From a plasmid: a DNA stretch of 64,000 bases. Each line of letters begins with the position of its first letter. Position 1 is the stretch's first letter. The position numbers were made by a program. Location of the stretch: NCBI RefSeq assembly GCF_057098645.1, contig NZ_JBXSPU010000002.1; one strand, 5' to 3'. Shown in pieces: positions 33,001-39,000 of this stretch.

Positions 33001-36000
33001 TTTGGGTGAACAGCCAATATGGTATGATGTTTATAACAAACAAATTCGGAAGGTATAGTTTATGGGGGACCTGGTCAGTAAAAATAATATCGATCGCCTT
33101 GAACGATTTCATTCTCTGCTGGCAGGGCAGTATTGGTCTGCGCTCGTCGATATTCCGGCTGAGGCGATTGTGGCCGGGGACACTCTCCTCATTAACTCGT
33201 TGCGGTACGTGGATAACAATCTGCATACCGTCATCCTTCGCGCTCACCCCCGGCATTACGGGGAATGGGTAAGCGTTGAAATCGTCGCTGAGAACGGTTC
33301 AAAATCAACGAAAGACAAGAGACTGAATGAGCATCGGTTTCTGACGGCCGATTTCCTCGCGTTGTTTGAATATCAGCCCGACCATGAAATTATCCGTCAG
33401 TCGGAGCTCAAAGGCATTCAGGATGAGGTCGCTGACCTGCAAATGCGTCTTACGGAAACTCTGCAAGATCCCTCTGCACTCCGGGAACTGGCTATTAAAA
33501 GGGTCGAAGACGAAGAGGCCAGTAAAAAGGGGGGGGCAACTGAGGACAGAATGCTTCCAGCCGTCAGGAATGCAGAAGATGTTGCAGTCACCATGGCGCT
33601 GGGTACAGTGCAGAATGCCCTTTCTCAGGGGATTTCAGAGGCTCAGGTTTCTCTGATGGCGAAAGTTGCGGAACGGGAAGGCAAGATTGCCGGTGCCGTA
33701 GCTAACATTATTACGTCGCGTACCGGCGCCATCACCCGGGCGCTGGAGAAAATGCATCCGTATTATGCGGAGCTGGCCGCTGCCAAGCTGGCCGGAACGC
33801 AGGAGGGCATTGAGCAAGCCAGCAAAATTCAGGCAGGTGTTCTCACGCTGGAATTATTCGTCGGCAAAAACGTGACGGTAGTTGATGTTGCGGAAGGCGA
33901 GCCAGCAGACAGCAGCATCCCGTTGACGCTGTGTCAGAAGAAACTCGTCGTGGATGAGGAGTTTTCTGCCTGGAGCGATATCGACGAACATTTTGATTTC
34001 AGGAGTCTTTCCGCATTCCTCAAGGCGCTAAAAGATAACCAGGGGCTGGTGGAGCAAATTTTCCCGACTGAGCGCTGCGTACTTGTCATGGTCACTACCC
34101 GCAGATTTATTGACTATGGTGATACCTGGGCGAATGCTGAAAACAACGAAAAGAACAGCATCGTGTTTCTGATGGTCCGCAACGGGCAAAATATCAAACA
34201 GATCTATTCCCCGGTGGAGAGCCATCTTGGGGCGTCCCGGTTATTTCCCTCTGAAGATGAGCAGCAGGGCCACTTCCGAGGGTTTGACGGTACCACCATC
34301 AAATTTGAAGATGTGGCTTATACCGATCGTCTCAAAGCCCATGACCTGATGGCTCTGCATTACCGACGTCTGCTTATCATGCTGTTTGGTCTTGACCAGC
34401 GACTGGCTCTCTTTGGTCAGTTCTATCCCCAGCATGAAAAGGCGAATTTCTTGAATCTGAGCTTCCAGGAACGGTACTTCCATTTTCTGCACGATGAAGA
34501 CGGCACAGGGCTGCTGGCATCACCAGACTCGCAGACGCTCGATGAATTTATTAGTGAAAAAAACTCCTATATTCAACCGGGCTCGCGGCTGCTCTGCAAC
34601 TGGCGTGAGCTTATGACCCCCAGAACAGCACCTGGTGCCGTTAAAGAGGACAGCGGCTATTCAGGGTACTCCTTCATCGCTGACCCTGAGGATAATGTCT
34701 CTGCTGCGGTTGTGTATCGTCAGGGAGATACTCTGGCCGTTGATGTGGCGGTGAAGCGATTCAGTACAGATAAGATGTTTAACTGTAAGGTAAACGTCTC
34801 TGCATATAGCCCGTGGCGGCGTGGAGAAGCTGAACTTGCTTATTTGTGCCTTGATGCAGTGGGCCCGGAGGAGCTGACCCGGTTTATCCAGCAACGCAAA
34901 TTCCGGAGTAACCACCTTTTTTATATTCGCTTTTTTAAGGCCGCGATCAAATTCCTGGAACAGGAGCGAGAAAACGAACTGCCGCACCGGCAATATCTGC
35001 TGGCTGCAATGCAGGATTCGGGGATGCACCTGCCGGGGAATATCCAGGAACTGATTCACCAGTGTATTGCTTCATGGAAGACCGGCAACCGTGGGGTTTC
35101 CCTCGCTGTCGGGATGAGTACCGAAAAAGGGCGCCAGGCACTGCTGAATCAGCTCTACAGGCTCACTCAGGGTGCAAGCGAAATGGTATCGGTCATTCAG
35201 GAGCACGTCGCTGCGTCCGGCTCGCAACTTCTTCGGGCCGGGGTTAACTCGTCAGGGAATTACGTCGCATTTATCGCGCCTAAACCCTATGAGTGTGACA
35301 ACAGACTGGAAGCCCATGCGTGGGTCCATCGTGTTGTCTATGCAACCGGGAAACGAAACATTCGGGAAACCGGCAGATCCTGGGTATCTATGCCGGAGCG
35401 TTCGGCATCCGAAATTACTCTTTGGGAAGATGAGGAGCAGTCACGAAAATGGTACTCCATGACGCCTGTATTCAGTTCGTGGACCGAAAAACAGAAGCTT
35501 TTTGAGATGTGCGAAAAAGGCGCAGGGTTACTGAAAGGGGCTATGGGGACGCCGGATGATGAGGAATATGGCGACCTGCTAGAGATGTGGGGGGACGCGT
35601 ATATCGCGTGCAATGCCAGCGGTGAGCATGTAACAACCCCGGATATGTTCCTCCCGGTAGGCCTGATTAAGTCACGAAAATCATTAAAGCTGATTGCTTT
35701 AGGTACATGCTCGACGGAGCACTGGATGTATGCCCGGGCAGGGGATGATGACTCAAGGGAGCTGCTGCTGGAATTGTATACCAGTTGGTATGAGTACCCA
35801 GATAAAGCGCGGGCGCGGCTCCTGTCGATGGCAGAAAAAAACTCCGGCCTGAGGTTTGTGTTGCTCGAAGGTAAATCAAGGAAACTGGAGCGCTTTGCGG
35901 TCAAGCGGCCAGAAGAGATTGTCAACTGGCATGCCGGTAACTTAAAGGAAATCCCGACAATGCTGAATGATCAATGGGCATGTCACATGGCAATGGTCAG

Positions 36001-39000
36001 TCAGAATGATAAGGTCTACCTGACACCGGGTTTGCTCGATGATGATGGTCTGCCTAATTTTAATGGAGTCACCAGGCAGGTGCCCGGAGAAGGTTATCAG
36101 CCAGTCAATGTCTATGAATTTGAAAGTGACTATTTTAACGCGGTATACGATGCAGACGGGAAGAAAGTGGCACTTTGTCACTGGTATGATGTGACGGATA
36201 ATTCATATTCTGCTGAAGAACTCATAGGCAATATGCCGCATAACGCATTTAAATTTCTTCAGTATAGACTGGATAATATCGAGCAGGCTGAGGCATTTAT
36301 CAAATACAGAAACCGGAATTATCAGCCCCGCGAAAATGCAGACTGGCCTGAGCCACCTGAAGGAGTTAAGCGTTACGTCATCAGAGCCCGAAGCTAGGTG
36401 AAAAATATTAAGGCAAAAGTTCAGTATGGAAATTGGTAAATCATACTGAACAATTAATATGACATTAGGCATGACTATAAGTAGGTGCCTTATTGGATGG
36501 TACATCGTATAAAAAGTAACTTTTCTAATCTCACCCAGCACTCCGGGAATGATGCTAACCTAAATCACGGGAGCAGTGCTGGATATTGGTCAATTTATAG
36601 TTCCTGTGGAATGTAAATGTAATTAAATGTTGCAATAAAGCGTGGTTGTGTTAAAAAGTAGGCTTCATTACCTAAGTTAAATTTTATAATGTATGCCAAA
36701 GAAGAATTTATACTCTGAAGAGATTGTGATTGCCAAAAAGCAACTCACTCAGCTTTCAACACTAAAAGATAAAGTCAGCCTGCTAACCCGTCAGTGGGAA
36801 GGTGATATTGGCGCCAATCTGCCTGGTTACACTGAGCTATTAGCTCATGTGGAAAGAATTGAAAGGCAGATTCATGAACAAATTGGCAGCTGGAAAAAAA
36901 CTCCTGCAATGTAAGATTCGCCTATCCATTCTGAAGCGGTGGTTTTGTTTAAGGGTAAAAAAATTCATTCCTTAATAGTTCTGTGACGCCGCTTTTAAAT
37001 CTTGGATGTTTGACTCTAAATGTCTATCATTTAATTAACAGTAATTATGATGTTGTCAGCCTTATTCCTGGCTGAATCTCAATATATTACCATACGACTT
37101 CATTTTGCTTATCTTCGGGTTCTCGAAGAATTCCGCCATGATTGTTCATAGCAGGAGGTTAGTATGGGTGTAGACATGAATTATGAGTTTCAGAAAAAAA
37201 GCCCTAAGGGATGGGACCGGGTTAACGATAATTTTTCAAACGACCGAAGCTATTTGCTTTATTCATGGTTGGGTCTGGATGCCCGTAACACCTGGGGTGT
37301 TGCAGCGATCACTCCTCTCAGGGGATTACCCGATGACATAGAACTTCAATGGGATGAGGATGGATGTGATGACTACTGGGGTGAGCATTCCCAAACGTGG
37401 TTACTATCCGACGAGATCCTTGCTTCAACCAGCCCGGTAGCCATTGAAGACGATGAACCGGGGTCGGTAGTTGCGGAGTTTTGTGCGGAGGTTCAGCGAC
37501 TTCATGGGCTGCATGGGACGGTAAGAATTGTTCTAGGCTTCACTGGTTAAACAAGGCTGGACTATCTAATGCCTCCAGACAACGTAATCCTGACGTGTTC
37601 ATCTACTGTAACCTGGTCGCTGGGGATATATCGCGGCCACCCTGACACGTCATTTGCATTTTTGATGATAAACGAAGGGTAGCCGAACTGCTCGGCCGCA
37701 ATATCGATATAAAAAATCATTTCACCGGCACTTACCTCACACCAGTAATGGCCGTGCCCGCCAGACTCATTGAAAATACCACCATCATCTGTTCCGTTCC
37801 CGCCTCGCACAGCTGCGGACATACCTCTGCGGTGCGCAAATTCACAAACCAGCAGACTGGCGAACATGCATGTTCCTGTGGTGTCGCTTGTCCCATTGTC
37901 ATTGAGGATATTTTTTAGTGATGAATAAGCATCAGTTGCGAGTGCCAGAACTGGAGTATCAACGGGAATAGAGGCCTGGTCAGTCATGAAAGAATGTCTC
38001 CGGTATGATGGAACGGCTAATTAAACAAGCAATGAGTTGATTCCGTTTTTGAGTACTTCACTTTCAGGCAACCAGTACCCGGAATCACACACCCATGATT
38101 CGCCCGGGAAAATGAAACCTTCGCGGACCAGGAATACTCTAAAATTTGGCGGCAGTACATTTTCTATTTTTAGCATGTATCCTTCCTGAATGGATAGATT
38201 TTTCAGCTCAGATAGAAGATTCGGTGAGACGATGAGAGTCATTAACTGAGTTGAGTTTAAAATCGCAACTATAGATGCATCATTATAGTTTTCCTGTCGA
38301 ATACCATGACAACGTAGAGTCAGGGATGCAGATCTTCGAGGCGAAACCATCGGTAACTAAATCGAGTAAATTTGGATTTAGCCGATTACCCGGTGCTGGC
38401 CTAAACGGCTCATAGTGATACCCCGGGTACTGTAAACTGCTGAAAATGCCGTGGGGCGCTTCTGAGGCTTTGTCAGGGCCACAGAACATGTTTATCCACA
38501 TCCGGAGGCGGTAGTACTTAGCTTATTCATTCATAAATGATATATCTCTGAAGAGAATATTACGTTACCTGCGCAATTATTATTCTTCCCTCTGAACATT
38601 GCTGGCATAACCAGTCATCGATGCACCGGCGAACTCACTGAAGTGTTGGCATATAGCCCGGTTACGTAACTCCCGTGTCACGGTGGCCACGGTTTTACGG
38701 CGCACTGGAGAAAGTGAAGTGGCACACTGAATTTGGCCACCTGAACAGAGGTGATATGCTCACCTCAGAACAACATGAAGAGAATGTACTCTGTACCTAA
38801 TGCAAGAAACGAGAGGGAGATCAGAAATCCTAACGTATTGATTTATCAGTTAGTGGGAGTGACATATGAACTTATTTACCACAGTAGGTGATTTAACATA
38901 ATCCTCGTTATATGTACCAAGTCTGTAACAGCAAAGTTGTAATGTCCGCCTTGGGCTAAGTTAAGATGTCCGGCGTGTATAATCAAGTAAGGATTACCAT

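Follow-up and report, generated by a model that had tools for sequence, protein, structure and literature searches.

The gene and its setting

The window (the whole stretch of DNA that was analysed, 64,000 nucleotides of contig NZ_JBXSPU010000002.1, RefSeq assembly GCF_057098645.1) belongs to a plasmid that a preliminary description, made from the sequence alone, had called IncHI-like; it is indeed IncHI and can be placed more sharply in IncHI1 (R27-like). The subject of this work is a gene on the plus strand, at positions 33062-36397, that encodes a protein of 1111 amino acids (aa). The gene product (database record WP_136655514; 125.8 kDa, pI 5.4) is a soluble, acidic, 126-kDa cytoplasmic protein, the long form of an uncharacterised mobile-element superfamily. 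The gene is an ancient accessory backbone gene of large MOBH plasmids (IncHI1, IncHI2, IncHI1B/pNDM-MAR-like, IncT and relatives) and of related integrative elements. The gene and the regions of its product are the following.

33048-33053, plus strand: Shine-Dalgarno-like GGAAGG, 8 nt 5' of the ATG, from direct reading of the sequence
33062-36397, plus strand: complete coding sequence of the 1111-aa protein, ATG start, 1111 codons and a stop codon, uninterrupted
33119-33373, plus strand: predicted N-terminal all-beta, barrel-like domain, about aa 20-104, from the secondary structure of the AlphaFold2 model
33383-33862, plus strand: predicted long helical, coiled-coil-like region, about aa 108-267, from the AlphaFold2 model
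33743-35110, plus strand: conserved core, aa 228-683, from hhalign, the conservation profile and invariant columns
35111-36394, plus strand: C-terminal extension, aa 684-1111, present in the long form only

The open reading frame (ORF) is exactly that of the preliminary description, with its ATG start and no interruption, and the coding-like composition noted there was borne out. GC content is 0.49-0.55 within the ORF against 0.37-0.42 in both flanking spacers, and the ratio of non-synonymous to synonymous substitution rates (dN/dS), calculated against the 92%-identical allele of another IncHI1 plasmid, is 0.11 for the gene as a whole and 0.10-0.12 in the four segments taken one by one. Purifying selection thus acts over the whole length, and the gene is therefore functional. 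An arms-race signature was looked for and rejected, dN/dS being 0.11 in all segments of the one close allele pair tested. Since the only longer ORF of the window is that of TraG_N/TrhG (1329 aa), the gene is, as had been stated, the largest non-transfer gene of the window, ahead of the MobH relaxase (1025 aa). The net charge of -33 over 1111 aa makes the protein just mildly acidic, and no hydrophobic stretch in it is strong enough for a transmembrane segment.

The DNA is 100% identical in about 160 plasmids (pYSP8-1, for example), and the IncHI1 prototype R27 has an intact gene at 125352-128687. In R27 the gene comes after dsbA, mucB, mucA and two small ORFs, and ahead of three small ORFs and citA; the order matches the published numbering (R0135 dsbA, R0136 mucB, R0137 mucA, R0144 citA; PMC7366339), and by this order, not by coordinates, the gene is ORF R0140 of R27. 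Microarray values from R27 are the sole published data on the gene that we found: R0140 gave 119 arbitrary units at 25 °C against 378 at 37 °C, that is, 3.2-fold lower expression at 25 °C, opposite to the R27 tra genes, which are induced at 25 °C (PMC7366339). The literature on IncHI plasmids, leading regions, plasmid defence and "R0140" yielded no functional study of the gene. In IncHI2A a 46%-identical allele occupies the equivalent syntenic slot, after umuDC and two small ORFs. The flanking backbone proteins are 29-90% identical between IncHI1 and IncHI2A, hence this divergence is ordinary for the less constrained genes of the region.

Family, domains and core

The claim that the protein is an orphan did not survive the searches. 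A word-indexed search returned 142 homologues with 33-84% identity, most of which span the full length at about 1100-1170 aa. Their sources are Klebsiella, Providencia, Burkholderia, Agrobacterium, Acidovorax, Bordetella, Pseudomonas, Delftia, Massilia and Brucella, and not one of these proteins is named or carries a Pfam domain. The profile search of 1.84 billion cluster representatives gave 2078 clusters (at 50% identity) at E≤1e-3 and 703 at E≤1e-30, while tblastn matches, intact or remnant, were present in 1644 of 72,556 plasmid records and full-length in 1155. Of the 1644 matching plasmids, 1476 have a conjugative typing, and all the examples listed are larger than 140 kb. A MOBH relaxase is found on all nine typed plasmids that were examined and likewise on the IncT prototype Rts1; relatives of the window's MobH relaxase (2096 records) have a similar host spread, from which we take the gene to be near-backbone in the MOBH plasmid supergroup. 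One-genome-per-species data contained 31 loci, nearly all from alpha-, beta- and gamma-proteobacteria, and several chromosomal copies adjoin tyrosine integrases and toxin-antitoxin pairs.

The statement that the protein has no recognisable motif stands, as pattern scans and all profile libraries came back empty and the fold search gave nothing significant. Library searches were run with single sequences and with profiles. There was no Pfam domain in the 1111-aa protein even at E≤10 (and none at E≤0.001 in sets of 40, 68 and 17 relatives), no NCBIfam match, no family of the PADLOC-DB v2 defence hidden Markov models at E≤1, no PHROGs match to this protein or to the phage short form described below, and no match among PDB sequences. 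Walker A, DEAD, SAM-binding, HKD and HExxH motifs were sought by regular expression and are all absent. The searches also brought up no characterised protein, of housekeeping or of transfer, with confident homology.

The AlphaFold2 model, calculated from a 40-sequence alignment, has a mean predicted local distance difference test score of 79 and a predicted template modelling score of 0.57. In the prediction, residues ~20-104 are a beta region at the N-terminus, 108-267 form long helices, 272-480 are alpha/beta, ~527-596 make up a small beta domain and 602-675 a helical hairpin; beta and helical domains continue from there to residue 1111. The N-terminal beta domain carries an invariant PHTVILRxHP motif (H55, H62, P63) in alignments of 40 and 68 sequences. 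The last helix of the coiled-coil-like region (232-267, with E237 and an LDLYxGK motif) already lies within the conserved core, which otherwise consists of the alpha/beta part, the small beta domain and the helical hairpin. The core motifs are Q292, MDEE (298-300), RR347/348, VR(D/N)G372-375, LFP396, GLDHR443-447, D478, GSR507-509, RxxRxNH612-618 and YIRFFK. Nine polar residues (H55, H62, R112, E237, E300, R338, N365, R612 and R615) do not vary in any of 108 sequences, even at 25% identity, and the set of invariant Arg, Glu, Asp and His residues points to a phosphate-rich ligand or to a catalytic site. Conservation is strong over the first ~800 residues and weakest in the last ~300. Within the C-terminal extension, residues 684-800 are still well conserved and 801-1111 are the most variable (column identity 0.25-0.47), nonetheless under purifying selection; the extension closes with a conserved PxPPxG(V/I)ERWY-like strand. 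Full-length alignment over about 1000-1180 aa, the PHTVxLRxHP barrel, the core motifs and the C-terminal extension together assign the protein to the long form of the superfamily.

The core was delimited by comparison with a family of phage proteins. A scan of IMG/VR gave 25 viral contigs with the family, 20 of which encode a short form of 597-655 aa; terminase and tail sheath genes identify the contigs with the short form as real phages. hhalign aligns the plasmid and phage profiles with a probability of 100% (E 2.7e-40), residues 228-683 corresponding to residues 162-605 of the phage protein, and it is this aligned region that we define as the superfamily core. A search with the phage profile returns short and long forms together. 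The phage proteins (~600-640 aa) have in common with the plasmid protein the ~450-aa core, a coiled coil ahead of it and the motifs MDEE, R(D/N)G, GLxDR and RxxRxN(H/Y)L; they differ in lacking the N-terminal beta barrel with H55 and H62 (the alignment begins at residue 228) and the 430-aa C-terminal extension. They are equally unannotated, with no PHROG, Pfam or NCBIfam match. Among 12 distinct contig contexts sampled, six have a gene of replication or nucleotide metabolism (primase, DNA polymerase, helicase, NAD-dependent ligase, ribonucleotide reductase, thymidylate synthase or dNMP kinase were counted) less than 8 kb from the short form.

From cultured phages the family is nearly missing; the exceptions are one copy in Tunturi_5 and three short or partial matches. 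Gp128 of Tunturi_5, a 308-kb jumbo phage of Tunturiibacter (an acidobacterial host), is a long form of 1100 aa (locus L049, 5980-9282) with 36% identity over query residues 16-883. It is surrounded by small hypothetical genes, and genes for an RNA ligase and an NAD-dependent DNA ligase are close by, which adds one case to the six above. A probable cultured representative, of the short form or the long, is the hypothetical protein of Flavobacterium phage MaF61.

Several assignments to known activities were considered and, that to PD-(D/E)xK nucleases apart, rejected. A P-loop NTPase or helicase is not consistent with the sequence, in which neither strict nor loose Walker A (GxxxxGK[ST]) nor Walker B/DEAD patterns match. 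R612-x5-H618 resembles the motif of HEPN nucleases, and R612 and R615 are invariant; H618, however, is not kept in the 68 more distant relatives, and no HEPN profile matches. In the AlphaFold Database two distant relatives carry the PD-(D/E)xK labels DUF4365 and DUF2357; neither label was reproduced in the 125 members scanned, nor in the Pfam annotation that the database matches listed already carried, and we found no conserved D...ExK pattern and no nuclease among the fold matches. Readings of the MDEE, SxH and DHR motifs as those of an AEP-like primase or a Pol-beta-like nucleotidyltransferase were dismissed because H388 is missing in the phage form and no such fold was found. A DNA mimic of the ArdA/Ocr anti-restriction type has no profile match; the protein is only mildly acidic, and its size is incompatible with this type. 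A positively charged C-terminal type IV secretion signal was also rejected, the last 20-35 residues having an average net charge of about -1 in 40 relatives.

Dispensability for transfer and neighbouring genes

The gene is not required for conjugation or maintenance and is not part of the transfer machinery; this conclusion was reached from plasmid variants found in nature and from published work. In about 320 IncHI2A plasmids codons 1-48 alone are left, beside a class 1 integron resistance region (cmlA1-aadA2), and these plasmids are still typed conjugative. The Rts1 copy is split into pieces of 454 and 698 aa by an IS26-aph(3')-Ia-IS26 kanamycin-resistance transposon; Rts1 conjugates, and in a systematic deletion study of this plasmid only 32 genes affected transfer (PMC10838148). 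In NZ_CP071862 an IS903 is inserted within the gene. Resistance elements have interrupted the gene on at least three independent occasions, and resistance DNA appears to be able to land at this locus and be tolerated there. The possibility that the gene encodes an IncHI Tra/Trh protein was rejected on the disrupted copies in plasmids typed conjugative and in Rts1, and on the regulation of R0140 opposite to that of tra by temperature. The points of interruption and the other features of the window discussed below are these.

Interruption: window 33062-33205 (codons 1-48); locus L043, 6001-6144; locus L075, 6001-7365 and from 12304 onwards
15374-15859, minus strand: MobI(A/C)-like gene of 161 aa; a divergent spacer of 730 bp separates it from the trhR-side genes (window 15374-16589)
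36419-36451, plus strand: perfect 10-bp stem GTTCAGTATG/CATACTGAAC with a 13-nt loop, 22 nt past the stop codon
36535-36582: imperfect 48-nt palindrome (CCAGCACTCCGGGA...CGGGAGCAGTGCTGG) in the spacer 3' of the gene

The mobI gene and its spacer correspond to R27 positions 108150-108906. In SXT/IncC elements oriT is expected upstream of mobI, and we take the 730-bp spacer to be the expected position of oriT here. The gene under study starts ~17 kb from this spacer, on the side opposite the relaxase operon, and an oppositely oriented umuDC operon lies between it and the trh genes. An umuDC operon on the opposite strand has been described as the usual boundary of anti-defence islands (Samuel & Burstein 2024, PMC11541004).

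Neighbour clustering over 32 loci gave no universal partner gene. Recurrent neighbours are Rep3/RepB initiators and ParAB (within 1-9 kb), H-NS, ProQ, integrases and the toxins HipBA (5 loci), HigB and ParE. The umuDC operon is two genes away in IncHI1 and IncHI2, and a Y-family polymerase is near the copy in Xanthomonas. In Klebsiella IncHI1B/FIB and IncU-type plasmids the homologue is held in a tight cassette (L007, 8688-13744; L047, 1693-6744), with an orphan N6/N4 DNA methyltransferase of 414 aa 64-69 bp 5' of it and a 117-aa ORF of no known family 10 bp 3'. The first of these loci also holds EcoRII and HigB, and locus L032 has a DndC-like gene.

An AAA+ protein of ~550 aa accompanies the long form, adjoining it or nearby, in seven loci of beta-proteobacteria or metagenome-assembled genomes, Acidovorax among them, and is encoded 13-20 kb from the gene on two enterobacterial plasmids. 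It has a classical AAA domain (PF00004) at residues 338-455 and an N-terminal half that matches no family. The AAA+ of plasmids and islands is a full-length homologue (E 4e-70) of one encoded 0.6 kb 3' of the phage short form on contig L060. Members of this family are located as follows.

~550-aa AAA+ family: L012, 8351-9961; L011, 8275-9975; L017, 14194-15864; L034, 6522-8144; L033, 19709-21391; L060, 7689-9362

In Pseudomonas chengduensis a true IetA (PADLOC, E 3.8e-68; L019, 13289-14371) begins 4 nt past the stop codon of the homologue. Its relation to the recurrent ~550-aa AAA+ family is no more than distant, and we read it for this reason as a separate neighbouring defence system. A further gene follows this IetA at 14290-14979 of the same locus.

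Two small ORFs precede the gene in both IncHI1 and IncHI2A, a 204-aa ORF (window 31671-32285) and a small signal-peptide-like ORF (32403-32786), with 53% and 29% identity, respectively, between the two plasmid types and no Pfam, NCBIfam or PADLOC match. The second is the small secreted protein that had been reported upstream: its longest ORF in the window has 127 aa and a signal-peptide-like N-terminus, and annotations of plasmid records give it 117 aa. Both ORFs and the gene may form a conserved three-gene block, in IncHI plasmids only. On the other side, two genes 3' of the gene, a 128-aa ORF (window 37164-37550) is by order R0142 of R27, which has no database match and, with a rise from 1126 to 5777 units, is among the genes of R27 whose induction at 37 °C is strongest. 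Farther on, a DUF3800 protein of 348 aa (window 40457-41503) adjoins an ISNCY transposase and matches weakly the PADLOC candidate PDC-M04A (E 1.8e-4).

The 10-bp stem 3' of the gene could be a transcript-end hairpin; it is without a T-run, and the terminator scan made no call there. The "palindrome copy" that had been placed at about 36511 was not reproduced as a copy: the imperfect palindrome at 36535-36582 has no second one in the window at up to 3 mismatches. Being single-copy in the window, it is not obviously a member of a repeat family.

Possible functions and relation to known systems

We propose, with a probability of roughly 35%, that the protein acts on the DNA of the element that carries it, while this replicates or becomes established, possibly in counter-defence. 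A theme of DNA metabolism recurs in unrelated contexts, namely the phage replication genes, the ligases, umuDC and the Y-family polymerase, and Rep/ParAB, and was counted in favour of this proposal, as were the constraint on the gene, its restriction to mobile elements and place in their backbone, the evidence against a part in transfer, the invariant residues and the AAA+ link. The protein would protect or process the DNA or nucleoprotein of the element, which may include the neutralisation of a host barrier. The coiled coil would mediate oligomerisation, and the ~450-aa core may bind a phosphate-rich ligand, nucleic acid or nucleotide, through its invariant Arg/Glu/Asp/His set. The N-terminal barrel and the variable C-terminal part, which only the long form has, could provide element- or host-specific contacts. 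In some elements the associated ~550-aa AAA+ protein may act together with it.

A number of points weigh against this proposal. No homology or fold gives a mechanism for the gene: Foldseek comparison of the full-length model with the PDB returned nothing at E<1e-3, and against AFDB50 it returned unnamed family members only. Arguments from neighbourhood are weak for large mobile elements, where genes of many functions are neighbours. Nor does the gene keep a constant position relative to oriT: it is ~17 kb from the mobI spacer in IncHI1 and beside rep/par genes elsewhere, and because of the latter we do not call it a leading-region gene in general. The ~550-aa AAA+ is not in the window and occurs in 170 plasmid records against 1644 for the gene, so it is at most a facultative partner. 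With 1111 aa the protein is much above the typical size of anti-defence proteins, and its expression at 37 °C in vegetative cells would suit a resident function and a defence role equally well.

The protein could instead be a single-gene, host-protective effector of defence or exclusion, acting by abortive infection or by interference with competing plasmids, with the core as the effector and the variable C-terminal part as the sensor. We consider this a serious rival, at a somewhat lower probability than our proposal. The gene is large, stands alone on plasmids and integrative elements and has toxin-antitoxin modules, restriction genes and defence systems around it (EcoRII and HigB in Klebsiella, HipBA in five loci, IetA in P. 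chengduensis and the DndC-like gene being examples), and an IetA/TRIP13-like AAA+ is linked to it in some loci. Low vegetative expression, higher at 37 °C, frequent loss or disruption, as expected of a costly accessory gene, and the variability of the C-terminal third speak for such a role as well. The protein has, however, no PADLOC match and no recognisable toxic effector domain, dN/dS shows no C-terminal excess, and the gene is a syntenic, near-core backbone gene in IncHI, not a patchy island gene. Moreover, virulent-type phages have the core, mostly where genes of replication and nucleotide metabolism abound, and a jumbo phage has the long form. The guess of the preliminary description, that the gene is a defence or anti-defence effector, accordingly keeps some ground in the restriction of the family to mobile elements, the lack of a fixed partner and neighbours such as orphan methyltransferases, toxin-antitoxin genes, umuDC and occasional defence systems, and loses some in the empty PADLOC search, the lack of diversifying selection in the one allele pair and the phage contexts of the core.

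A conjugation-associated accessory function, either as a substrate of the MOBH/MPF_F type IV secretion system acting in the recipient or as a helper of the relaxosome, appears improbable. That the gene is a decaying, functionless relic or a mis-called ORF, as its many truncated or interrupted copies could indicate, is effectively refuted by purifying selection (dN/dS 0.11) and full-length conservation across alpha-, beta- and gamma-proteobacteria, besides the frame intact over 3.3 kb in ~160 identical plasmids, the confident AlphaFold2 model and the transcription of the gene. The remaining probability falls to some explanation outside those listed.

Under either the establishment or the defence reading the core would probably be a new fold or activity. 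Our proposal can be carried further: the core would be a new fold, possibly a new enzyme class, with which MOBH plasmids, integrative elements and phages alike would counter a host barrier by protecting or processing their DNA, some lineages pairing it with a dedicated AAA+. In this full form it is speculative and more doubtful than not by a wide measure; if true, it would mean a new mechanism of counter-defence or DNA protection on the backbone of the clinically dominant IncHI-type resistance plasmids. The carriers include IncHI1 (typhoid, tet(X4)), IncHI2 (mcr-1/mcr-9) and IncHI1B/pNDM-MAR-type Klebsiella plasmids, and the gene is among the largest of these resistance plasmids, yet without a name, domain or structural relative in the databases. 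An establishment or counter-defence factor would help to explain the host range and persistence of these plasmids, while a defence gene would add a new single-gene system to them. The gene is a tractable target: it is under constraint, its superfamily exceeds 2000 clusters, its core is common to phage proteins usually encoded near genes of replication or nucleotide metabolism, and transfer does not need it.

The protein family is outside every library searched, and its newness is one of distance from known families, not of demonstrated function; its sole demonstrable relatives are themselves uncharacterised. Among the closest known systems, the SH3-like 2B domains of SF1B helicases and the translocation-signal domain of TraI (4l0j, 3e1s, 3upu, 7bil) may be named. 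AAA+-partnered defence of the IetAS type is similar in that a classical-clade AAA+ (PF00004; weak IetA/TRIP13 matches) adjoins the gene in several loci; it differs in that the 1111-aa protein is not IetS, no protease or other PADLOC match is present and the AAA+ stands beside this gene in a minority of loci only. Compared with the establishment and anti-defence sets of conjugative plasmids (PMC11541004), the protein lacks a known anti-defence domain, has ~10 times the typical size and is not consistently near oriT. It resembles them in its restriction to mobile elements, in the opposite-strand umuDC that adjoins the gene and in neighbours that include orphan methyltransferases, DUF3846, DUF4942, DUF1173, H-NS and ProQ.

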